A stretch of DNA of 64,000 nt. Source: an uncultured Gammaproteobacteria bacterium. Its GTDB lineage: Bacteria > Patescibacteriota > Microgenomatia > Levybacterales > UBA12049. The position numbers and the translations under genes were made by a program. Location of the stretch: the NCBI GenBank assembly GCA_964507055.1, contig CAZDOJ010000001.1, positions 721,313-785,312 of the forward strand, written 5' to 3'. Under the pieces are notes generated by a model that had not been told where the DNA came from, did not search any database, and was given only the letters and a program-made list of their open reading frames with translations. How positions within the stretch are numbered: position 1 is the stretch's first letter; each line of letters starts with the position of its first letter. This document shows positions 37,905 through 63,526 of the stretch, in pieces.

Positions 37905-37976
37905 GGCCCGTTCGTATATCGGTTAGTACACCAGGTTCTCATCCTGGGAAGAGGGTTTCGACTACCCTACGGGTCA
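37905..37976 (+). tRNA. tRNA-Glu (anticodon CUC), CCA not encoded
   Basis: Hand-folded. Acceptor GGCCCGT/ACGGGTC (one G-U); U8; D-stem GTAT/GTAC (one G-U) with loop ATCGGTTA containing GG; anticodon stem CCAGG/CCTGG; loop TTCTCAT (U33, anticodon CTC, A37); variable GAAG; T-stem AGGGT/ACCCT; T-loop TTCGACT; discriminator A. GC-richer than flanks. Confidence 0.75.
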
Positions 37977-38013
37977 CATTTCTTCAACGCTTCAAATTTG
38001 CTATAGTGGATAT

Positions 38014-49598: not shown

Positions 49599-51968
49599 TT
49601 AAATTGCTTGATGTGCGGTAACTATTGGTTCTTCATCAACTGCTTTATCAGCTACTTTTGCCTTTGGAAGAGGCTTGGTCAAAGCAATTTTCAGTACTTC
49701 ATCCATTTGGCTAACAAACTTGAAATGTAAATCCTTAACTACTTCTTGTGGAATATCTTCAAGATCTTTCTTATTATCTTTTGGTAAGATAATTGTCTTC
49801 AATCCTGCTCTATGTGCAGCAATAACCTTCTCTTTTACTCCACCGATTTCAAGTGCTCGACCTCTTAGTGTAACTTCACCAGTCATAGCAACCTTACGAT
49901 TAACAGGAATCTTAGTCAAAGCTGAAACAATAGCTGTTGAGATAGCTAGCCCCGCTGATGGGCCGTCCTTTGGTACTGCGCCTTCAGGTACGTGGACATG
50001 AATATCAGTTTTTTGGAATAACTTATCAGAGATTCCCATTGTGTGAGCCCGTGATCTGATATAGGAAAGTGCCGCTTGTGCTGATTCTTTCATCACATCT
50101 CCCAATTGTCCAGTCAAGGTAAGAACACCTTTTCCAGGCATCAATGCAACTTCTATAAAGAGGATATCGCCACCAGCCTCAGTCCATGCCAAACCTGTTG
50201 TTTGTCCTATTTCGTCTTTCTTTTCCATCATTGTACCGTGATACTTCATCGGTCCGAGGTACTTTGGTATATCGATCGCTTTCACAGTAATCTTTGATTT
50301 TTCGCCCTCTGCAACCTTCTTTGCAACCTTTCGGAGTACTGTTGCAATTCTTCGTTCTAGATTACGCACACCAGCTTCACGTGTGTAGTGATGAATAATG
50401 TATTGCAATGCTTCGTCAGTCAATTCAACCTGCTTATCTTTCAAACCATGATTTTCAAGCTGTTTTCCGATTAAGAAATCGTGTGAGATCTTGAATTTTT
50501 CATCATGTGTATATCCAGCAAAATGAATAATTTCAAGTCTGTCTCGAAGTGCTGGTGGAATTGTGTCCAAAACATTTGCTGTAGTAATGAACATAACATT
50601 GGAAAGATCAAAAGGAACTTCAAGATAGTGATCAGAGAAAGTACCATTCTGTTCTGGATCTAATGCTTCGAGTAATGCACTTGATGGATCTCCTCGGAAA
50701 TCTGAACCTACTTTATCAATTTCATCGAGCATGAAGACTGGATTTTTTGTACCTGAGTCTTTAATGCCCTGAATGATACGACCTGGAAGTGCTCCAACAT
50801 ATGTTCGACGATGTCCTCGGATTTCAGCTTCATCACGGATACCACCAAGTGATACACGGACGAACTTTCGGCCTAATGCACGAGCAATAGATTTACCGAT
50901 AGAAGTCTTACCAACACCTGGAGGTCCTGCAAAACAAAGGATAGGGCCCTTCATCTTTCCTGAAAGCTTATGAACTGCGAGATATTCAATAATACGCTCT
51001 TTTGCTTTTGATAAACCATAGTGATCCTCATCCAAAATCTTCTCAGCTGTTTTAATATTTGAACTATCTTTACTCTCTTGACTCCAAGGAAGTGCGACCA
51101 TCAAATCAAGATAATTACGGATGTATCCAGCTTCAGGATTGAATTGATTCATATTTTGAAGCTTATTTAATTCCTTACGTGCTTTTTCTTCAACTTCTTG
51201 TGGCATCTTTGCCTCTTTTATTTTGTTAAGAAGGACTCGGATCTCAGAATTTTCTTCCTTATCACCCAATTCTTCTTCAATTGTTCGAAGTCTTTCGCGA
51301 AGCATTGCTTCACGAGCACCTTTTTCAAATCTTTCTTGCGTCTTAGAAGCAATTCGGCGTTCTAATTCGAGGATCTTTATTTCCTTTGCAAGAAGTTCTG
51401 TCAATTTTTGCAAACGTGCTTTTACATCGGTCATTTCAAGCAAATCTTGTCGTTCTTGTGGTTTAAGATCGAGTGCTGATGCAATAAGATCAGAAAGTTC
51501 TGCAGGTGAAGTTTCGGACATGATATTCATGAAAAGCAAAAAATCTGCTGACTTTCCAAAGTTCATAGCTTTACGGAATTCATTTGTAAGGTGATTGCAG
51601 AGTGCTTTAATCTCTTCATTCTTTTCAACTTCTTCTGGGAGCTCGACAACTCGTGCCATGAAATAAGATTCATGTTTTTCATATCCAAGGATTTTTACAC
51701 GGGATAGACCACGAACCTGTGCATTTATTTCGCCATCAGTTCGGATCATACGTTCGATTCGAGATAAAGTACCGATCTCATAAAGGTCATCAGAACTTGG
51801 ATCATTTAACCGAGCATTTTTCTGAAGGACGAAACAAACAACTCGTTCTTTTTGAAAAGCAGATTCAAGAGCTGCAAGACTTTTTGGACGTCCAAACGTA
51901 AGGACTGAATCTGTACTTGGGAAGATTATTCCATCTCTTATTGGAATTATTGGGACAACTTTTTCCAT
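49599..51968 (-). CDS. lon: ATP-dependent Lon protease
   Basis: N-terminal LON domain, Walker A 'GPPGVGKTS', catalytic Ser 'PKDGPSAGLAISTAIVSALT', Lys 'EKVIAAHRAG'. Confidence 0.9.
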   Translation of the reverse strand: MEKVVPIIPIRDGIIFPSTDSVLTFGRPKSLAALESAFQKERVVCFVLQKNARLNDPSSDDLYEIGTLSRIERMIRTDGEINAQVRGLSRVKILGYEKHESYFMARVVELPEEVEKNEEIKALCNHLTNEFRKAMNFGKSADFLLFMNIMSETSPAELSDLIASALDLKPQERQDLLEMTDVKARLQKLTELLAKEIKILELERRIASKTQERFEKGAREAMLRERLRTIEEELGDKEENSEIRVLLNKIKEAKMPQEVEEKARKELNKLQNMNQFNPEAGYIRNYLDLMVALPWSQESKDSSNIKTAEKILDEDHYGLSKAKERIIEYLAVHKLSGKMKGPILCFAGPPGVGKTSIGKSIARALGRKFVRVSLGGIRDEAEIRGHRRTYVGALPGRIIQGIKDSGTKNPVFMLDEIDKVGSDFRGDPSSALLEALDPEQNGTFSDHYLEVPFDLSNVMFITTANVLDTIPPALRDRLEIIHFAGYTHDEKFKISHDFLIGKQLENHGLKDKQVELTDEALQYIIHHYTREAGVRNLERRIATVLRKVAKKVAEGEKSKITVKAIDIPKYLGPMKYHGTMMEKKDEIGQTTGLAWTEAGGDILFIEVALMPGKGVLTLTGQLGDVMKESAQAALSYIRSRAHTMGISDKLFQKTDIHVHVPEGAVPKDGPSAGLAISTAIVSALTKIPVNRKVAMTGEVTLRGRALEIGGVKEKVIAAHRAGLKTIILPKDNKKDLEDIPQEVVKDLHFKFVSQMDEVLKIALTKPLPKAKVADKAVDEEPIVTAHQAI

Positions 51969-55670: not shown

Positions 55671-56843
55671 ATGAAAAATGATATTTTGGAGCAGATTTAT
55701 CTGACTTCTCTGGATCTTCTTAACGCTAATTCAGCAAAGAAACTAGAATCGACAATCGTAGAATCATCAAAAAAATTGAGCGGAGCGGCTTATGCTCAGC
55801 TTTACTTCAACCAAAAAGACCGATTAAAGAAAATCTATAGCTCTGATGCCGAGATCAAAAAAAGTACGATGGTGAAAATGCCTGGATTTAAGAAATATGC
55901 TCTTAAACATAGTATCGCTACAGTTCCACAAGATGTTCTTAAAACGTGGAATATTGACCATATGCCACCGAATATTCATGCGATTACTGTGATCCCACTG
56001 CTACACAAAGATAATCCTCTGGGATTTCTTGTCCTATTTTTTATTGAGAAAACAGACCTAAGCGAAGAAACGAAAAAAGCCCTTCTTACACTAAGCCAAA
56101 CAGCAGTTCTTGCGATAACAAAATCACGAATTCAGGAGGAATCCAAAAAAGCATTGGAAATACGAGATAGATTTATTTCGCTTGCTTCACATGAACTACG
56201 AACACCTTTGACTTCTTTACATGGATACATCCAATTGCTCCATGCAAGAATGTCAGGAAAAGAATCTGTTGAAGCACGGTGGATAAACGAATTACATATT
56301 GAGAGCATACGATTAACAACTTTAGTAAAAGAATTGCTCGATGTTAATAGAATCAAACAAGGTCAGTTTGCTTTCGTCTTTAGTGAGGTCCCTATGCAAG
56401 AGGTTGTTGAGAAAGCAATTGAACACTATCGATTAACTAGTGCAGATCATCCTATTACTTTCCAGAATAAACTGGAAGATGATGGCAAAGTCGTAGGAGA
56501 TTTCGATAAGCTGGTTGAAATGGTTTCAGGTCTATTAGGAAACGCGATAAAATTTTCAAAGCCACAAGAAAAGATAGCCATTCTACTGAAAAGTACTCAG
56601 GGAATGCTTTCATTAACGGTAAAAGATACTGGAAAAGGTATAAGTAAGAAGGACCTTGCAGCTGTCTTTGATGGGTTTTATAAAAGTTCTCACGCAAGCC
56701 ACCTAGAAGGTATGGGCGTCGGATTACTTTTAGCAAAGCATATCGTTGAGAATCATAGAGGGAAAATCAAAATCACTTCAAAAGAAAATAAGGGAACAAA
56801 AGTGGAAATTACATTACCGACGATTAAGGCTACTCCCCTTTAA
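55671..56843 (+). CDS. cytoplasmic sensor histidine kinase (GAF-like N-domain + HisKA + HATPase_c)
   Basis: H-box 'LASHELRTPLTSLHGYIQLL', N-box 'LLGNAIKFS', G1 'VKDTGKGIS', G2 'GMGVGLLLAK'; no TM. Confidence 0.8.
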   Translation: MKNDILEQIYLTSLDLLNANSAKKLESTIVESSKKLSGAAYAQLYFNQKDRLKKIYSSDAEIKKSTMVKMPGFKKYALKHSIATVPQDVLKTWNIDHMPPNIHAITVIPLLHKDNPLGFLVLFFIEKTDLSEETKKALLTLSQTAVLAITKSRIQEESKKALEIRDRFISLASHELRTPLTSLHGYIQLLHARMSGKESVEARWINELHIESIRLTTLVKELLDVNRIKQGQFAFVFSEVPMQEVVEKAIEHYRLTSADHPITFQNKLEDDGKVVGDFDKLVEMVSGLLGNAIKFSKPQEKIAILLKSTQGMLSLTVKDTGKGISKKDLAAVFDGFYKSSHASHLEGMGVGLLLAKHIVENHRGKIKITSKENKGTKVEITLPTIKATPL

Positions 56844-58433
56844 AACGCATGCTTCATAGGGACCTAATGTGATTTGTGTTTCGTTATCAGCGATTGTATG
56901 ATCCGCATTTGTAGATACAACTACCTGCATATCAGAAAACGGTAAGGTCCCAATTTGGTCCTGATCAGTAAAATTCAACAGAATAACTCGCATATCATTA
57001 TCAATCGATCGAGTGAATGCAAAAATCTCATTGTTTTTAACGTCTAGACTATCATATGCACCATTAATAATAACCGCATCCTCCTGACGCATTTTTAGAA
57101 GCTTCCTGTAAAGTGAAAGCATTGAATGCACATCCTTACTTTCATTGGAAACATTTCGTTCCTCCCAAGCATTTTCCAAAGGCAACCACGGTGTTCCTTT
57201 CGTAAATCCAGCATTTTTTGAAGCATCCCATTGCATTGGAGTTCGGACTGGATCACGTCCAAATCCTGGCGACGTATATTCTTTCGTGTCATGAATCATT
57301 TCTCGCGGGATATGCACATCTTCCATACCAAGTTCCTCCCCATAATAAATAACAGGCATACCTGGAAGTGTCAAAAGTAATACTGCTGCAATCTTTGATT
57401 GCCCACGACCAAATCGTGTAGATATACGTGGCTTATCATGATTCCCAAAAACAAATGTTGGAAGCTCTGTTGGAGTTAAGGATTTGATATAAGCCGTAAC
57501 AAATTGTCTGTATGAATCCGCACTCCAAGGAATACGTTGGAGTTCAAAGTTGAAGGGGATGACATTCCCACTGGAGATATTCTCGTAATATTTTTTGTAA
57601 ATCGGGATTGCATCAGTTCCTTTTTTATTGAGATACGATTCAGTAATAAGAAATCCGTCACCATGTTCTTTAATGAATGAACCGAGTTCATCGATAATTT
57701 CAAATACTTTCTCTTGATCACGCATATATATATGCAACTTTTTATAAAACGGTTGTATCGCACCTTCAACATAGGTTAGATCATCAGGTTCATCAAGAAA
57801 TCGTGGATCTTTCCAAAGGTAATTTGCAGCATCCAACCGAAATCCATCGACATCTTTATCAATCCAAAACTTGATAACCTTTTTTACTGCTTGCATCACT
57901 TCGGGATTTGCCCAATTGAGATCAGGCTGCTCAGTAAGAAATGAATGGAAATAATATTGTCCCGTTGATTCATCCCAAGCCCACGGTGTCGGCTCAAAAA
58001 CACTCATCCAGTTATTTGGCTCTTTGCCGTCGACTTTGTCTTTCCAAATATACCAATCTCTTTTGGGATTATCACGGCTGGATCGAGATTCTTGAAACCA
58101 TGGATGCTGATCTGAGGTATGATTTACAACAAGATCGATTACCACTTTAATCCCTCGGGCATGTGCTTGTTCAATAAACTTTTCAAAATCTTTCAGAGTT
58201 CCAAACTCTGGGGAGACATCACAATAATTCTCAATATCATAGCCTCCATCCTTCATCGGAGATGGATAAAATGGAGTAATCCAGATGGCATTAATACCTA
58301 ATTCTTTGAGGTAATCGAGTCGAAAAATGATGCCATTGAGATCACCATAGCCATCACCATTGGAATCTTGGAAACTTCGAGGATATATTTCGTATAGAAC
58401 GAGATTATTCTTTGATGACATAACCAAAGCCAC
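56814..58433 (-). CDS. GH13 alpha-glucosidase / oligo-1,6-glucosidase-like
   Basis: 'LYEIYPRSFQDSNGDGYGDLNGI', 'DLVVNHTSDQHPWF', catalytic 'GFRLDAANYL', 'EELGME'. Confidence 0.8.
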   Translation of the reverse strand: MALVMSSKNNLVLYEIYPRSFQDSNGDGYGDLNGIIFRLDYLKELGINAIWITPFYPSPMKDGGYDIENYCDVSPEFGTLKDFEKFIEQAHARGIKVVIDLVVNHTSDQHPWFQESRSSRDNPKRDWYIWKDKVDGKEPNNWMSVFEPTPWAWDESTGQYYFHSFLTEQPDLNWANPEVMQAVKKVIKFWIDKDVDGFRLDAANYLWKDPRFLDEPDDLTYVEGAIQPFYKKLHIYMRDQEKVFEIIDELGSFIKEHGDGFLITESYLNKKGTDAIPIYKKYYENISSGNVIPFNFELQRIPWSADSYRQFVTAYIKSLTPTELPTFVFGNHDKPRISTRFGRGQSKIAAVLLLTLPGMPVIYYGEELGMEDVHIPREMIHDTKEYTSPGFGRDPVRTPMQWDASKNAGFTKGTPWLPLENAWEERNVSNESKDVHSMLSLYRKLLKMRQEDAVIINGAYDSLDVKNNEIFAFTRSIDNDMRVILLNFTDQDQIGTLPFSDMQVVVSTNADHTIADNETQITLGPYEACVLKGSSLNRR

Positions 58434-59115
58434 GAACAGAGTGCAGTAGCTTTTTCTCAGAATCTGAATCTACTTTCTTTCGGAGATATCCCATGTAGAC
58501 ATCGACGACACGGGTTTCAACATCACTTGAGTATAACCAGATTCGGGAAAGAATCATTTCTCGAGTAAGGATACGACCTTTGTTACTCATTAAATATTGC
58601 AATAATTTAAATTCCTGTGGAGTTAATTGGATTTGCTTGCCACTTCTTTTTACTTCCATTGTCTTTGAATCTAGTTCTAAATCTGCAACTTTCAAAACAG
58701 CTTCATTACTAACTTGTTTTCTGAGTCGGGCTTTAATACGAGCGAGAAATTCATCAGCGACAAATGGCTTTGTCATATAATCATCTGCACCAAGGTTTAA
58801 TCCTTCAACAATATCGTTAATTGAGTCTTTTGCTGTAAGAATGATTATTGGGAGGTCTTTATACTTCTTACGAATTTCGCGAGTAACTGCTTCACCTGAC
58901 ATAACTGGAAGTCCAAGATCCATAACTACTAAATCAGGTTCAGTTTTTTTGAAGTAATCTAAGGCTGCGATACCATCAGAAACAGTATGCACGGAGTATC
59001 CGTTATCAAGAAGTAATTCTTTAAGATATTTTTGCAATCCACGGTCGTCTTCGACCACTAATATTGTTTGCATCATAACTCGTGCCATTATAGCAACAAA
59101 TGTAAGAACGCACAA
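58405..59115 (-). CDS. OmpR-family response regulator (REC + winged helix)
   Basis: 'ILVVEDDRGLQ', 'LVVMDLGLP', 'PIIILTAKD', winged helix 'LTPQEFKLLQYLMSNKGRILTREMI...MGYLRKK'. Likely start at Met14/15 (~59073). Confidence 0.8.
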   Translation of the reverse strand: MCVLTFVAIMARVMMQTILVVEDDRGLQKYLKELLLDNGYSVHTVSDGIAALDYFKKTEPDLVVMDLGLPVMSGEAVTREIRKKYKDLPIIILTAKDSINDIVEGLNLGADDYMTKPFVADEFLARIKARLRKQVSNEAVLKVADLELDSKTMEVKRSGKQIQLTPQEFKLLQYLMSNKGRILTREMILSRIWLYSSDVETRVVDVYMGYLRKKVDSDSEKKLLHSVRGFGYVIKE

Positions 59116-59147
59116 CTCATAAAATAGCGTATGTAAAAAATTTCAAG

Positions 59148-60377
59148 TTAGAGAGATTTTCGTGGCCCATCTTCCGGCCCATCTTCTTCACCTGACCAAT
59201 CAACTTCTCCTCCCAATGAATCAAGGGGAGAGTCGTCTGAATCCAATGGAGGCATAGAAGGTGGCGGCGTTTTAGGAGCTTCATGTGTAATCCACACACC
59301 CATTGGATCAAAGCCAGTTACCTCAGCAGTTCGTTGATCAATAGTTAATGGATCTCGGAGATCTGCAATATAGTATTCGACTCCCAATAGACTTGGATCT
59401 GTTACTTTATATCCTAAAATTTCACTTACTTGGTCAACAACTTTTTGGGTTGCTGTAGCCCGAGCTTCCACAATCTCTTCGGCAGTTGGATCCTCTTTGC
59501 CAGCTAGGGCATCAGTTGTGAAAGCATCAATTTCCAGCTGCCAACGAGACTGTGCAGCTGCTATATTTTCTTTGACTGGTTGTGCATACATTTCCAATTC
59601 TTGAGCATTGGCACGCAATCCTTTTGTTTTGTCTATATATTCTCGAATTGCTTCACGCTCCAAATCTTGTCCTACAGTAGCTTCTCGCATTATTCGTGCA
59701 GCTTGTACACTATCGAATGCTTCTGCATACTTTCCACGTTCGAAATCGCCAAAAAATGTATCCATTCGCTCTCTAAGTCCTTCTGGATCAGTCATCCCTA
59801 CTCTATAAAAAATGGGACCGAGATTTCCATTACTATGGATCTTTTCCCCTGTAATAATACTGACTCTTTTTAGGACTTCTTCTTGTGCTCTTGAGTTGGC
59901 CTCAAATGGTGGATGATATTGCGAGTACCTATTAACAAGAGTTGTATGTTCTTCCTCAAACAGAAACTGAACAGCCTCAATATGACTTACGACCCCATAT
60001 CTAAAATCGGAATATTCGTTTACTTCATGTATACCGTCACTCGTGTGAGAGGGATCTCTGTGGTATCTTTCCCGAAATAATTGTAGGGTTATTTCATCCC
60101 GATGTTGGGTGAATGATTTTTCATCACGACCCTCTGAATAAGTATTTGGATGTTTCGAAGGTCTCTGATGTATATCATGGGTAAAAAGTTGTATCCCGGG
60201 ATCCCTAGGATCTATCATTCCTTTATCCAGCCATTCTTCCTGGGCAATTTCTTGGGCACGACGTGCGTATCTGCCACGGAATGTGAACCGTGAGGTTGCT
60301 TTAAAAGTTTCCCATCGTTCGCGGAAACCTTGTTTGGGTTGATCTGGTCTACCTGGTTGTGATTCTGGGTTTTTCAT
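59148..60377 (-). CDS. acidic cytoplasmic protein of unknown function sharing N- and C-terminal motifs with the adjacent sigma-like protein
   Basis: 409 aa, D/E/R-rich, no TM. N-terminus 'NPESQPGRPDQPKQGFRERWE'. C-terminal 34 aa 'PPLDSDDSPLDSLGGEVDWSGEEDGPEDGPRKSL' aligns without gaps to the tail of 60438..63239. Confidence 0.5.
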   Translation of the reverse strand: MKNPESQPGRPDQPKQGFRERWETFKATSRFTFRGRYARRAQEIAQEEWLDKGMIDPRDPGIQLFTHDIHQRPSKHPNTYSEGRDEKSFTQHRDEITLQLFRERYHRDPSHTSDGIHEVNEYSDFRYGVVSHIEAVQFLFEEEHTTLVNRYSQYHPPFEANSRAQEEVLKRVSIITGEKIHSNGNLGPIFYRVGMTDPEGLRERMDTFFGDFERGKYAEAFDSVQAARIMREATVGQDLEREAIREYIDKTKGLRANAQELEMYAQPVKENIAAAQSRWQLEIDAFTTDALAGKEDPTAEEIVEARATATQKVVDQVSEILGYKVTDPSLLGVEYYIADLRDPLTIDQRTAEVTGFDPMGVWITHEAPKTPPPSMPPLDSDDSPLDSLGGEVDWSGEEDGPEDGPRKSL

Positions 60378-60437
60378 AAAGAGTCATTATAATCGAAAGA
60401 TTAGGCACAAGCAAGTCTACAGTAAATATCTTATAGA

Positions 60438-63239
60438 TTACAGTGTCTTTTGCTGATCTGTTTCTGGACCATCATTGTCGCCAGACCAGTCCACACCAGA
60501 ATTTAACTCCTCCAATGAGATATCATCTTCAGAGAATTGCGGACGATCTTCACCTGATTGACCAGCGTGAGGAGTAGAACCTGGAAGTTTCTTTTCAAGA
60601 AGACCTTCTTTTTGCAGTGATCGGACAATCTTCCTTGTTTCATTAAATGTAAGCCCGGTAATTGTTGCTATTTCGTCCAATGTAGCATGAGGTCGTAACT
60701 GTATAATCTGATCTCGTTGTCGTTGTTGTGCTTCAAGAACTTCCTCTGTTGGAGAAGTATCTATTCCTTTCTTATCGAGAATAGCTTTTGCATCGTATAA
60801 GGATTCCAATGGATAATTGGTCTCTTCATGTATCTGTTTAATTGACTTACCAGCACGTAAACCGATAATCAGTGCTTCACGACGATCATTTCTCACAACA
60901 TCACTTGTATCTTGCCAGTTCACAACATACCCATAATCACCTGCCTCGGTCAACCTTCGAGCAATATTTTCTTCACTAAGATAGACCGTTCTTGAAATAT
61001 CTTTTATTCGGCTTCCTTCGTTATAAAGAGTAATAACCTCATCGTATCGATCACGTATTTCCTCAGCGGTTCGACCCTGAAGATCTGTAGGAATTTGAGA
61101 TAGTACTGTATCTACCATTGGCTTTATAAGTTCCCATGAAACCCTATCTTGCACTTTACTTGCATAGGTACTCCATGCATGACGCATAGATCTTGCATCG
61201 CTTTCTTGATCATCCATATGCGGTGCAAAAATCTCAGCAACTCTTGCTAAGGAGTATGGACTGCCGAAAGGATCTTCATTACCTGCTTGTGATTCAACTG
61301 TTGTAAAGTATGTTTGCTTGAGAGTGGAGAGATCAGTTCTTGAAAGATCCATTCGGCTGAGTAATTCTTCGGCAGCATCTCTTCGGTCAACAGACCAAGC
61401 AGCGTCATTTCCAATTCCCCGAATTAACCGAGCAGCAAGATCTGTGGATTGGTCTGGAGTTAGTTCATTCATAGCAGCCATTGCTTCTGCTCTTACAGTG
61501 GTCCATTCAGCAGGATCACTGTGATAAAACTTCCACAGGTGGTTATCACCTAAATATTTTTCTATTATTTGCACTTGAGGATCAAGTTCATCAGGCCGGA
61601 GTAGTTTTATTTCACCCTTCGCGAGTGCACGTATCGATTCAAGATCACCCTCCACCTTTAAAGCATCTGCGTGGATCAGATGTTCCATCAGATCATCGAC
61701 ACGTCCCATACTTTTATCCCAAGTAGTTGATCCCATACTATTCAAATTAACAGCTCTTACCCATGTATCTCTGATATCCCAAAGCCCTTGGGTATCTGTT
61801 TGCAATACTTCAGCAAGGATAGTTCCTGACTGCAATAGAAGATTTGGATCGGAGGTATTACTCTGATTTTCTACTGCCCATAAATACCGCTCGGTCAATA
61901 CATTAGAATCTAAGCCTTCAAGATCTACCCCTCTTAAAAGCTGTAAAGCAACGTATTTTGCATTCCCCTCTCTCCCCATTTTGCTAATGAGAGCTCTAGT
62001 AAACCACGTTCTTTCTTTTGTGTTTAATCTATTTATATCGTGCACTGCACCTTTGTATTCGTCACTTGCAGTTCGGCGATCAAGAAATCTCTTATACTGA
62101 CTGGCAAACAATCTATATTCCAAAGTTGCGGCATTAAACTCAGTCCTTTTTTCTTCAGCTTCGTTCGTTTCTGGTACTTCAGGGACTTCACCACCTTGTT
62201 GTACCCAATAATCCAGTATATGTTCATCTGTACTTAACTTTTGTAAAGTATTTTTATACACACGTCTAACAGTCATCGAAGAGATACCCATTCTTTCCGC
62301 TATTATCTCTTGTGTTACACCATCTTTGAAAACCGCTTCAAGAATATCCCGCTCTCGTTCTGTTAAACTCTCAGTCACAGTATCAAATACGTTATGAACA
62401 TCAACTGGTGTAGCCATAGACCTAGTAAGATATTCCTCTACTGTATCCTCTGGTACTACTCCTATTTCCTTAAAAATCATTCCAATGGCGGTTTGTATAT
62501 GTAAATCAATTGGCTGAGAATCCATCGTACTGAGATGTTCAGCAATAGCTTGTCTTGTAGGCATTTCTCCGTGTTGCTCGAAATAATTATTAGCAAATGA
62601 ATAGCCCTCCAGATAAACTAACTGAGCAATTCTGGGAATTCTAATCTCATCATCTTGTTGAACTCGTGCCTCAAAAATTGCACTTCTTACTCTTCTTGTA
62701 GCATATTGATAATAATCTACGCCTGAATCAGGATCATAGTCATCGAGTACATTGGTAAGCTCTGCTAGTCCTTCTTGAAACCTATCTTCAATTGTCATAT
62801 GCTTTGTGGTATGCCTTCGGGCAGGTCCAAGGATAATACCGAGACTACAGTTTAAAAGAAGTTGTGATACAGAATTACTCTCTGTAATTACTGCCTCGAA
62901 TTCCTGTTGAAATTTATTACTATTTTCTGGTGTATTGGTTCCAAAGGCTTCATTCGTTTGAATATCTGACAGTAACTCTGTACGCTGCGTATGCATTTGC
63001 TTTCGTGCTGAGGGTGTAGGATTCTCATTATAGTTATTGACTATAGATTTTTCTTGTGTGTATGCTCGAAACAAAACTGACCATTGACGCTGTGACAATT
63101 TCTGAGGATACCGAATAATTTTATTCCAGTAATCTGCATGCAAAGAAATGCTCCCAGCACCTTCTTCACGGGCTCTGTCAGCATATTCTTCTTCCCTAAA
63201 TCGGCGAGCAACCGCACCAGGTCTATTTCTCTCTGTCAT
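60438..63239 (-). CDS. atypical sigma-70-family protein with ~125-aa N-terminal and ~600-aa C-terminal extensions (extra HTH repeats)
   Basis: Region 2-like 'DRFQEGLAELTNVLDDYDPDSGVDYYQYATRRVRSAIFEARVQQDDEIRIPRIAQ' (compare canonical '..DLIQEGNIGLMKAV.KFD..RG.KFSTYATWWIRQAI......IRIP'). Region 4 'LTERERDILEAVFKDGVTQEIIAERMGISSMTVRRVYKNTLQKL'. Extra HTH-like units near the C-terminus. Tail 'PQFSEDDISLEELNSGVDWSGDNDGPETDQQKTL'. Confidence 0.6.
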   Translation of the reverse strand: MTERNRPGAVARRFREEEYADRAREEGAGSISLHADYWNKIIRYPQKLSQRQWSVLFRAYTQEKSIVNNYNENPTPSARKQMHTQRTELLSDIQTNEAFGTNTPENSNKFQQEFEAVITESNSVSQLLLNCSLGIILGPARRHTTKHMTIEDRFQEGLAELTNVLDDYDPDSGVDYYQYATRRVRSAIFEARVQQDDEIRIPRIAQLVYLEGYSFANNYFEQHGEMPTRQAIAEHLSTMDSQPIDLHIQTAIGMIFKEIGVVPEDTVEEYLTRSMATPVDVHNVFDTVTESLTERERDILEAVFKDGVTQEIIAERMGISSMTVRRVYKNTLQKLSTDEHILDYWVQQGGEVPEVPETNEAEEKRTEFNAATLEYRLFASQYKRFLDRRTASDEYKGAVHDINRLNTKERTWFTRALISKMGREGNAKYVALQLLRGVDLEGLDSNVLTERYLWAVENQSNTSDPNLLLQSGTILAEVLQTDTQGLWDIRDTWVRAVNLNSMGSTTWDKSMGRVDDLMEHLIHADALKVEGDLESIRALAKGEIKLLRPDELDPQVQIIEKYLGDNHLWKFYHSDPAEWTTVRAEAMAAMNELTPDQSTDLAARLIRGIGNDAAWSVDRRDAAEELLSRMDLSRTDLSTLKQTYFTTVESQAGNEDPFGSPYSLARVAEIFAPHMDDQESDARSMRHAWSTYASKVQDRVSWELIKPMVDTVLSQIPTDLQGRTAEEIRDRYDEVITLYNEGSRIKDISRTVYLSEENIARRLTEAGDYGYVVNWQDTSDVVRNDRREALIIGLRAGKSIKQIHEETNYPLESLYDAKAILDKKGIDTSPTEEVLEAQQRQRDQIIQLRPHATLDEIATITGLTFNETRKIVRSLQKEGLLEKKLPGSTPHAGQSGEDRPQFSEDDISLEELNSGVDWSGDNDGPETDQQKTL

Positions 63240-63526
63240 AATCGAATGATTATACTCCTGTTCTTCATCAAACTCAACCTATAGTGAGTTGACTCCAAAG
63301 AATAATTTATATTTAATAAAAAAGTTATGGGACATATAAATTATTTTACTATTCAACAATGATGAGCTTGACGAATTATTTTTTAATTGCTATAAATTTT
63401 ACACACCTTAATATTTTTTCAAATACTCTTCTGTATCTAAAATCTCATCATTTTATTAATTCCTTACAAAATATTTAATCATTTACACTTTTCTTACCAC
63501 TTTATGATTGAAAATTTATATGGGTC

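Follow-up and report, generated by a model that had tools for sequence, protein, structure and literature searches.

In a 64,000-nucleotide stretch of DNA from an uncultured bacterium (named as a Gammaproteobacteria bacterium; GTDB lineage Patescibacteriota, Microgenomatia, Levybacterales, UBA12049; GenBank assembly GCA_964507055.1, contig CAZDOJ010000001.1, positions 721,313 to 785,312 of the forward strand), two neighboring genes encode proteins that end in nearly the same peptide. This stretch in its full length is referred to here as the window, and positions are counted from its first letter. Why should a 933-aa sigma-70-family protein (A, open reading frame (ORF) 60438-63239, minus strand) and a 409-aa helical protein (B, ORF 59148-60377, minus strand) carry a common C-terminus on unrelated cores? 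The pair represents, in its smallest two-gene form, a system not previously described that is organized around a giant sigma-like protein, and relatives of A in other uncultured lineages lie in runs of up to 13 genes of which nearly all products share one tail per run. The answer that we favor, and consider somewhat better than evenly probable, is that the shared tail is a functional C-terminal recognition or address tag that co-evolves with, and is read by, one common partner.

The tail shared by proteins A and B

The genes for A and B lie on one strand with a gap of 60 nt, as described in an earlier sequence-only reading of this DNA, and are read in the same frame. The tail likeness pointed out in that reading is likewise correct: the last 34 residues, PQFSEDDISLEELNSGVDWSGDNDGPETDQQKTL in A and PPLDSDDSPLDSLGGEVDWSGEEDGPEDGPRKSL in B, align without gaps and are identical at 16 of 34 positions, among which are those of VDWSG, of DGPE and of the K[ST]L at the very end. 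On the minus strand the tag of A (..DDISLEEL..VDWSG..DGPE....KTL-stop) occupies 60441-60542 and that of B (..DDSPLDSL..VDWSG..DGPE....KSL-stop) occupies 59151-59252. In a pairwise BLASTP comparison of the two proteins this gap-free segment (38.5 bits, E = 6e-7) was the sole significant high-scoring pair, in agreement with the claim that the cores are unrelated. When the tail of A was searched with phmmer against 183 C-termini from the window and the control loci, the tail of B was recovered at E = 8.9e-8 and the runner-up at 0.46. No third copy of the VDWSG/DGPE motif was present in the six reading frames of the whole window.

Such a resemblance might be functionless, an artifact or neutral relic left by duplication of a 3' end, by gene conversion or by a chance likeness of acidic low-complexity sequence. 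Both tails are indeed acidic with many Gly and Pro residues, a composition that raises chance similarity, and only two copies exist in the part of the genome that the window covers. A recent tandem duplication or gene conversion would be expected to leave high nucleotide identity at synonymous sites as well, and the comparison named for this purpose in the sequence-only reading gave the opposite result: the DNA of 60441-60542 and 59151-59252 is identical at 52 of 102 nucleotides (51%), with 23/34, 22/34 and 7/34 identities at codon positions 1, 2 and 3, respectively, that is, 65-68% at the first two positions and a random level at the third. Because the synonymous sites have been randomized while the peptide was kept, an artifact of recent duplication is excluded. 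The E value obtained among real C-termini, and the return of this architecture in four gene runs independent of one another, where 32 of 33 left-out tails were recovered (described below), also speak against the wider explanation, which is largely refuted and in our estimate highly improbable. The tail is a genuine peptide that has been under selection as protein.

The motif itself is private to one genome. The sequence-only reading had treated VDWSG..DGPE as a signal of general use, which was not borne out: a search with the degenerate DNA pattern [VIM]DW[ST]GxxDGPE gave three matches in 185,579 species genomes, three in JGI metagenomes and none in IMG/VR, all of them internal chance matches and none C-terminal, and the homologs of A that were found bear other tails, none with a VDWSG..DGPE ending. 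Inspection by eye for an EF-hand or dockerin-like calcium loop, a PDZ class I ligand, a beta-clamp motif or an SSB-tip motif showed that the residues do not fit.

Tagged gene runs in other lineages and a proposed address tag

Word-index searches with A and B returned the queries themselves only, both proteins being singletons known from one NCBI genome (a contig of 1,318,932 bp) and ~10 sequencing runs of one SRA project. An exhaustive phmmer search with A through 1.84 billion representatives yielded 1,726 matches, mostly ordinary sigma factors, headed by relatives of the whole protein or of its C-terminal extension: P0003 (922 aa, 319 bits), P0005 (1000 aa) and P0006 (970 aa), followed by P0004 (756 aa), P0007 (801 aa) and P0008 (516 aa), and by more than 15 shorter proteins that carry at their N-terminus the X domain of the extension. 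Ten top homologs were checked, P0003-P0008 among them: all are singletons, and nine have no source other than Logan assemblies. Of ten shorter X-domain proteins that were also checked, three occur in JGI or ENA data as well. Relatives occur in groundwater metagenomes, which together with the small genome and its GC content of 35% would suit a Patescibacteria-like bacterium. Neither A nor B has relatives in IMG/VR, GenBank phages or PLSDB plasmids.

Homologs of A from four other uncultured lineages are encoded in co-directional gene runs of 3, 10, 12 and 13 genes. The P0003 run (L015/L022) comprises 12 consecutive same-strand genes, and 11 of the 12 products, of 137-983 aa and with different cores, end in the tail '..EP.[IV]G..[ST]I[AS]..E[AED]....K.K[ST]K-stop'. 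All 13 genes of the P0005 run (L017), one of which lies on the opposite strand, encode '[RK]Y[LF] ... [IL][FY].[RK]YG[ILV]', and 12 of the 13 products end with 'E[IV][ED]E-stop'; the deviant end belongs to the gene at L017 16876-19593, whose product keeps 'F.RYGL' and then continues for ~50 extra residues without the terminal E[IV][ED]E. The P0006 run (L018) has 'SGAW[TH]V ... V.[IF][VA]G..G ... R[DE]/SR-stop' in 10 of 10 genes, and the P0004 run (L019), which stems from another SRA project, has an L017-like tail in 3 of 3.

These tails are 34-60 aa long and consist of two or three separately conserved motifs. With leave-one-out hidden Markov models (HMMs) of the tails, 32 of 33 left-out tails ranked first among ~170 C-termini, at E values between 1e-14 and 2e-3, and each tail motif is restricted to its own run and essentially absent from control ORFs. 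The HMM of the L017 tail matches the L019 tails at E ~1e-5, the sigma-family cores of these two loci being only ~27% identical. Within the runs, as in the window, codon position 3 of the tails is less conserved than positions 1 and 2, save for the last 12 codons of L015.

Between lineages the tails differ, while several families of cores recur. Four core families, namely the giant sigma proteins, the tandem winged-helix-repeat proteins, the N-domain proteins and the helical proteins to which B belongs, are orthologous across runs, and in an alignment of the giant-sigma orthologs (alignment A3) the proteins stay collinear as far as the conserved 'K.PG' that closes the last winged helix, beyond which each carries the tail of its own run. 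Orthologous cores with differing tails imply that the gene content is older than the split of the lineages and that the tails have changed in concert within each lineage. The solitary homologs P0007, P0008 and P0106 lie in ordinary chromosomal settings (DUF2079, YkuD, GreA, BipA etc.) and have no tail in common with their neighbors; P0007, whose sigma-like part is degenerate, and P0008, which has no sigma part, stop a few residues past the conserved core end 'K.PG'. Thus, the tail tracks membership in a tagged run and not protein family, being uniform within a run and different between lineages. Judged from the sequences, such concerted change is hard to explain without a constraint for one common tail per run. 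The two-gene module proposed in the sequence-only reading is accordingly real as a pair, and was understated, since the pair is the minimal version of runs of up to 13 genes.

Of ten proteins of the tagged runs that were searched against Pfam, nine gave no match, and the tenth gave weak winged-helix matches only. We observed an unusual density of sigma-related genes in L017 1-22783, where five genes with sigma-70 region matches, all tagged, are found within 22.8 kb beside genes for winged-helix-repeat proteins. The tandem winged-helix family (L022 12826-15777, L022 16057-18450, L017 1674-3260 and L018 17267-19372) bears a weak likeness to the winged helices of Fur, ArsR, TFE and MCM and to MAGE, and its 983-aa member is an internally duplicated ~450-aa unit. 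By eye, the 'SLEEL' and 'VDWSG' of the window tail could be taken as homologous to the 'SIAELE' of L022 or the 'LDW..SGAW' of L018, a relationship that the tail HMMs do not bear out. About 50 aa from the C-terminus of P0006 (L018 7696-10608), the sequence 'GLDWADGSGAW' joins a 'DW..SG' string (compare VDWSG) with SGAW, which is suggestive of motif turnover, without statistical support.

The N-termini of the tagged proteins carry a second signature. A resemblance between the N-termini of A and B, claimed in the sequence-only reading, is not significant for the pair itself (15 bits, E = 11) and does exist in the family of tagged-run proteins, A included: the pattern ^M.{0,5}[ED]R is present in 21 of 38 tagged-run proteins versus 1 of 51 other ORFs of the window (Fisher p = 4e-9), mostly ahead of a basic, Pro-rich stretch, and is matched by A ('MTER') and not by B. 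As a mere by-product of leaderless translation this M-x-[ED]R signature would be insufficiently explained, other genes of the window being equally leaderless and free of Shine-Dalgarno sequences without having the motif. The start of the gene at L022 18389-21196 is probably mis-called; the called start overlaps the previous gene by ~60 nt, and an internal 'MIERT' 21 codons downstream fits the signature.

Conservation at both ends, at the frequencies just given, invites the idea that the members assemble head to tail, the acidic/aromatic tail of one binding another at its basic 'M-x-ER' N-terminus or at one of its domains, in a complex or condensate and much as docking or COM domains do. The two ends of the window proteins are opposite in net charge, concerted, lineage-specific change would be readily accounted for if the receptor were encoded in the run itself, and the extension of A is modeled as an alpha-solenoid, the kind of fold to which extended peptides commonly bind, although its matches are generic only. 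B, however, lacks the N-terminal motif, the extreme C-terminus of the L022 proteins is basic as is their N-terminus, and the X domains are strongly conserved across lineages whereas the tails are not. Self-assembly of this kind therefore appears doubtful to us.

The proposal of a common reader agrees with the core idea of the sequence-only reading, that conserved termini on unrelated cores form a shared docking or targeting signal, and this idea is supported by the runs, by the 32 of 33 HMM recoveries, by the tail-less solitary homologs and by the lack of conservation at synonymous sites. The tag would be a disordered segment of 34-46 residues with short acidic/aromatic motifs and a fixed terminal tripeptide (K-[ST]-L in the window), and would mark the products of a specialized gene set built around the giant sigma-like protein. 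One partner per genome would recognize all tagged proteins by reading the motifs and probably the free C-terminus, and would have co-evolved with the tag separately in each lineage. The window would represent the smallest such set, a sigma-like protein with one member of the helical family, to which the runs of 10-13 tagged genes in its relatives would add further sigma-like, winged-helix-repeat and helical proteins.

Several observations weigh against this proposal. Only two tagged genes are present in the part of this genome covered by the window, and a motif kept in two sequences of one genome cannot alone separate function from slow decay; the functional argument is for this reason drawn from the larger gene runs and not from the A/B pair alone. 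The related loci are all single metagenomic contigs from few sequencing runs. In tail HMM comparisons no relationship was detected between the tail type of the window and the other three, to which it is tied by core homology and shared architecture and not by tail sequence. Lastly, no receptor or machinery was seen, nothing like a secretion system, shell or capsid being encoded in the window or in the fetched loci, and no reader being found in the 80 kb of this genome that the analysis covered.

Both the existence of a reader and the destination of the proteins are what we infer from these patterns. The tag would most likely bring its carriers to a common destination, be it the outside of the cell, the inside of a particle or a hub on which they assemble, for instance the alpha-solenoid extension of A, and simple degradation is judged less likely than a common destination. 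Delivery of the tagged set outside the cell or into a particle is a serious minority possibility; assembly on a hub in the cytoplasm, a part that the alpha-solenoid extension of the giant sigma protein or the N-termini of fellow members might play, we hold to be about as probable or somewhat less so. A more specific version of delivery, to which we give similarly low credence, is that the tagged proteins are cargo of an unrecognized delivery system of small-genome, probably host-dependent bacteria, with injected sigma factors as effectors. The C-terminal tag and the N-terminal M-x-ER would then address sigma-like, winged-helix-repeat and helical partner proteins for export into a partner cell or for packing into a particle, followed by takeover of transcription there.

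If the address-tag proposal is true, the tails would constitute a new class of bacterial protein address signal, and the gene runs would define dark-matter families around giant sigma-like proteins, namely the X-domain, winged-helix-repeat and B families. Should the reader serve to export or package its targets, sigma factors would for the first time be seen as delivered effectors; should it be a cytoplasmic hub, a new way to assemble transcription regulators would be implied. The tail peptides offer an experimental handle as bait for the reader, and the search for identical C-terminal peptides on neighboring unrelated ORFs offers a computational rule for finding cargo sets.

Proteins A and B and their chromosomal setting

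Gene A (60438..63239, minus strand) was delimited from its ORF, from Pfam, TIGR and PDB alignments and from the full-length homologs P0003, P0005 and P0006. Its product comprises, in order, an N-terminal region, sigma regions 2-4, two helical X domains, three helix-turn-helix (HTH)/winged-helix modules and a disordered tail. The description of A as sigma-like in the sequence-only reading agrees with Pfam, TIGR02937 and alignments to SigA/RpoD structures in the PDB. Sigma70_r4 (PF04545), the HTH of region 4, matches aa 291-335 with 51.2 bits against a cut-off of 24.1, and TIGR02937 matches aa 139-336 with 69.5 bits against 42.9, region 2 and the order sigma2-sigma3-sigma4 being present; PF04542 alone falls slightly short (21.9 versus a cut-off of 24). 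The sigma-70 core (aa 102-336, regions ~1.2 to 4.2; 62232..62936, minus strand) was placed by phmmer against the PDB and by NCBIfam: it aligns continuously with residues 257-503 of SigA/HrdB, and the SigB/F/G-type alignment of NCBIfam covers aa 126-336.

In sigma factors the HTH of region 4 reads the -35 element, and the aromatic 'WW' dyad in region 2.3 of RpoD melts the -10 element. Where RpoD has 'YATWWIRQAI', A has 'YATRRVRSAI' and thus lacks the aromatic dyad, and its homologs vary at this place as well (alignment A3). Many alternative sigma factors are also without the dyad, so its loss does not exclude sigma function, and from its sequence we regard A as a genuine sigma-70-family protein.

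The 600-aa extension that follows the sigma core belongs to no Pfam family other than generic HTH models. AlphaFold2, supplied with a 22-sequence alignment, predicts an all-alpha structure with a mean predicted local distance difference test (pLDDT) score of 84. The first copy of the X domain (aa ~370-520; 61680..62132, minus strand) is all-alpha with pLDDT >90 in the model and has a homologous stretch in P0004, P0007, P0008 and P0009; the second copy (aa 553-736; 61032..61583, minus strand) carries the motifs 'W.VDRRDGA..LL' and 'DP.GS.YSL.EAG'. Three tandem HTH/winged-helix modules (aa ~724-885; 60585..61070, minus strand) extend to the 'KKLPG' core boundary, as indicated by Pfam, alignment A3 and the AlphaFold2 model, with weak Pfam matches to HTH_40, HTH_7, HTH_Crp_2 and HTH_IclR and a helical model of pLDDT 80-95. 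In the model the tail begins straight after the last winged helix, behind the conserved 'KKLPG'; pLDDT is ~40 from construct residue 551, equal to aa 888, so that the predicted disordered tail of A spans aa 888-933 (46 aa; 60441..60578, minus strand).

The X domain is an uncharacterized all-alpha domain that is also found at the N-terminus of many shorter proteins. Its solitary copies in L020, L021 and L023, from three lineages, adjoin genes for DUF2079 and/or YkuD proteins, a setting whose gene order suggests a conserved chromosomal locus.

Gene B (59148..60377, minus strand), known from its ORF and an AlphaFold2 model, encodes a short member of a tagged-run family. No family was found for B in Pfam or NCBIfam (E <= 0.1) or among PHROGs, PADLOC gave a single chance-level match (PDC-S46, E = 0.05), and comparison with the PDB gave only weak matches to ribosomal-L9-domain proteins (E ~0.011). 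The single-sequence AlphaFold2 model is of low confidence throughout (pLDDT 42.8), helical to about residue 331 and without regular structure thereafter, and the shared tag of B lies in this low-confidence part. The affiliation of B comes from its region aa 223-344 (59346..59711, minus strand), which is homologous to the family of L017_14320, L018_10628 and L017_3312: BLASTP gives E = 1.2e-8, and an HMM of these three proteins, built with their tails removed and B left out, matches the core of B with E = 7e-18 (58 bits) among 168 ORFs. PDB profile searches with the B family and with the winged-helix-repeat family returned weak winged-helix matches or none. Neither A nor B has a transmembrane segment or a signal peptide, the highest 19-residue Kyte-Doolittle means being 1.16 for A and 0.63 for B.

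Given a genuine sigma-70-family protein with B encoded behind it, B could be the anti-sigma factor or a co-factor of A, and the common tail could bind a surface of RNA polymerase in competition or cooperation. Gene order is favorable to this idea, L018_10628 sitting directly downstream of the giant sigma gene as B does and the B-family gene of L017 lying one gene further away, and by analogy the acidic/aromatic tails may resemble activation-domain motifs that contact the polymerase. The anti-sigma role suggested for B in the sequence-only reading found no backing, however: no zf-HC2/RskA anti-sigma domain, partner-switching kinase or STAS domain was found in B (Pfam and NCBIfam, E <= 0.1), the protein is without a Pfam, NCBIfam, PADLOC or PDB relative, and it belongs instead to a helical family of the tagged runs. 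In the larger runs, moreover, one tail is carried by 10-13 proteins, including families without a recognizable DNA-binding or sigma domain, and the tails are replaced completely from lineage to lineage, unlike polymerase surfaces, which are conserved. The solitary homologs of the extension of A are tail-less, although P0007 and P0008 say little on sigma function. Docking of a sigma factor and its partner on polymerase is thus an explanation to which we assign little probability.

Terminal degrons are well established in bacteria, as exemplified by the ssrA tag, the C-terminus of MuA, the C-terminus of SulA (recognized by Lon) and the N- and C-motif classes of ClpX, and a gene for Lon lies within the window at 49599-51968. 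The tail, perhaps together with the basic N-terminus, might therefore mark its carriers as short-lived regulators for Lon or ClpXP, directly or through a lineage-specific adaptor. A tag that is placed at the exact C-terminus and is disordered in the structural model would suit this function, and most carriers are regulators (sigma-like and winged-helix proteins). Nevertheless, tails of 34-60 aa with two or three conserved motifs far exceed the known needs of a degron, and Lon and ClpX are highly conserved enzymes with many substrates whereas the tails differ wholly between lineages, so that a fast-evolving adaptor would be needed. The link to Lon drawn in the sequence-only reading is not supported either, some 7 kb of unrelated genes separating Lon from A and B. 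A shared degron is in our view rather unlikely.

The start regions of both genes have the same layout. A promoter-like site of A, TTGAGT-17-TATAAT (63249..63277, minus strand), has its -10 box ending 9 nt before the ATG, with no Shine-Dalgarno sequence, which implies a leaderless or near-leaderless mRNA. A TATAAT box of B (60386..60391, minus strand) lies 8 nt upstream of the ATG, and from this sequence B probably has a leaderless promoter of its own. The likely operon of the sequence-only reading is thus supported insofar as no terminator-like site lies between A and B, and weakened by the separate TATAAT box of B. Like A and B, nearly every gene of the tagged runs lacks a Shine-Dalgarno sequence and has a TATAAT-like box 5-9 nt ahead of its ATG. 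Across the window, Shine-Dalgarno motifs precede only 3 of 53 ORFs of at least 120 aa, and many first-in-operon genes have TATAAT 5-9 nt upstream of ATG or GTG. The presence of this layout throughout the window indicates that leaderless expression is a trait of the organism and not of the module, and the sequence points to genome-wide leaderless or near-leaderless translation initiation.

The GC content of 58000-62000 (0.40-0.42) exceeds that of the rest of the window (0.33-0.36), and recent horizontal transfer was suspected on this account. It is ruled out by the GC content at codon position 3 (GC3), which is 0.27 in A and B compared with a genome mean of 0.269, so that both genes are native and not recent imports; the excess of GC resides in codon positions 1 and 2 and reflects a composition rich in Asp, Glu, Gly, Arg and Pro. 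Native GC3, the lack of viral and plasmid relatives and ordinary chromosomal surroundings likewise dispose of a phage or plasmid gene set.

The remainder of the window is ordinary chromosome, with genes for polysaccharide synthesis, glutamine synthetase, Lon, sortase, two-component systems and glycoside hydrolases. The ORF of an OmpR-type response regulator (58405-59115), listed with a TTG start, overlaps an alpha-amylase ORF (56814-58433) by 29 nt; a gene caller gives a shorter regulator of 222 aa at this locus, and the listed start is probably too far upstream. ARAGORN predicts a tRNA-Glu(CTC) at 37905-37977, and at the gathering threshold Rfam reports no family in the window, tRNA included.

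Comparison with known systems

Two features distinguish the tags from signals already known: they are carried by DNA-binding proteins of cytoplasmic type and not by enzymes or surface proteins, and wholesale change between lineages combined with uniformity within a run bespeaks concerted co-evolution with a reader. The literature that was searched contains no account of such tags, nor does any paper in it cite the sequencing runs.

Signals for export through the envelope fit poorly. An LPXTG or PEP-CTERM-type signal, which joins an N-terminal signal peptide with a C-terminal motif, a transmembrane helix and a basic cluster, was rejected, there being no signal peptide and no transmembrane helix, and the tails being acidic. 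The C-terminal domain of type IX secretion substrates is a folded beta-sandwich of 70-100 aa accompanied by a Sec signal; the tail has 34-46 aa, is disordered in the model (pLDDT ~40) and gives no match to a Pfam domain of this kind. Substrates of type VII secretion carry a ~100-aa helical hairpin with a WxG turn and YxxxD/E; 'WSG' matches WxG literally, but the proteins here have 409 and 933 aa and carry it in their disordered tails, and YxxxD/E is absent from the window tails and present, by our own reading, in 5 of 13 L017 tails.

The encapsulin-like or SSB-like identity considered in the sequence-only reading is not supported. Encapsulin cargo peptides do resemble the tags in placing a conserved C-terminal peptide behind a disordered Pro/Gly-rich linker on unrelated cargoes, with the partner encoded nearby. 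Their loading peptide, GSLxIGSLK, is unlike the motif of the tags, however, and the tags are borne by DNA-binding or regulatory proteins of 265-1000 aa, up to 13 per run, and no HK97-fold or encapsulin shell-like Pfam family was present among the genes of the window or of the examined loci.

As a sigma factor whose large helical extension at the C-terminus may take the place of an anti-sigma factor, A recalls the extracytoplasmic function (ECF) groups ECF41 (SnoaL-like) and ECF42 (TPR). Those proteins have two sigma domains (regions 2 and 4), whereas A aligns through region 3 like group 1-3 sigma factors; its 600-aa extension consists of two X domains and three HTH modules, with no Pfam match to SnoaL or TPR in A, and the tail and tagged runs have no ECF counterpart.

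The layout of a core, a disordered linker and a free C-terminal peptide is also that of the acidic tip of SSB, the C-terminal peptide of FtsZ, the EEVD ends of Hsp70/Hsp90 read by TPR proteins, and PTS1 read by PEX5. The L017 and L019 ends, E-[IV]-[ED]-E, even resemble EEVD, while the window proteins end in K-[ST]-L. In these hub systems one family carries the peptide and many partners read it, whereas here many unrelated families carry the tag, and the sequences are unrelated.

Type IV secretion systems (T4SS) recognize, in the Arg-rich signals of VirB/D4 substrates and the 'E-block' of Dot/Icm substrates, unstructured extreme C-termini on unrelated soluble proteins, some of them large, that lack a Sec signal. 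Charged residues prevail in the tags as well, the L022-type tails ending Lys-rich and those of the window and L017 types being rich in Glu and Asp. T4SS signals are weakly conserved compositional features, whereas the tags are sharp and contain several motifs; T4SS substrates are not encoded in single co-directional runs, and sigma factors are not known among them. No T4SS genes were seen in the window or in the fetched loci, nor was a VirD4-type coupling protein in the 80 kb of this genome that the analysis covered, and the T4SS signal itself lacks a sharp definition.

Docking and COM domains of polyketide synthases (PKS) and nonribosomal peptide synthetases (NRPS), and the cohesin-dockerin pair, share with the tags the placement of terminal peptides, at both termini, on successive products of a gene cluster for specific, co-evolving docking. 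Docking and COM domains are specific to a pair, whereas here one tail serves a whole run, and dockerins are folded whereas the tails are predicted to be disordered; no PKS, NRPS or cellulosome domains were detected by Pfam in the examined A, B and tagged-run proteins. No known family of sorting signals fits the tail, and, as analogies of function and with no claim of membership, T4SS-type C-terminal signals and PKS/NRPS docking domains would appear to come closest to the tag shared by A and B.

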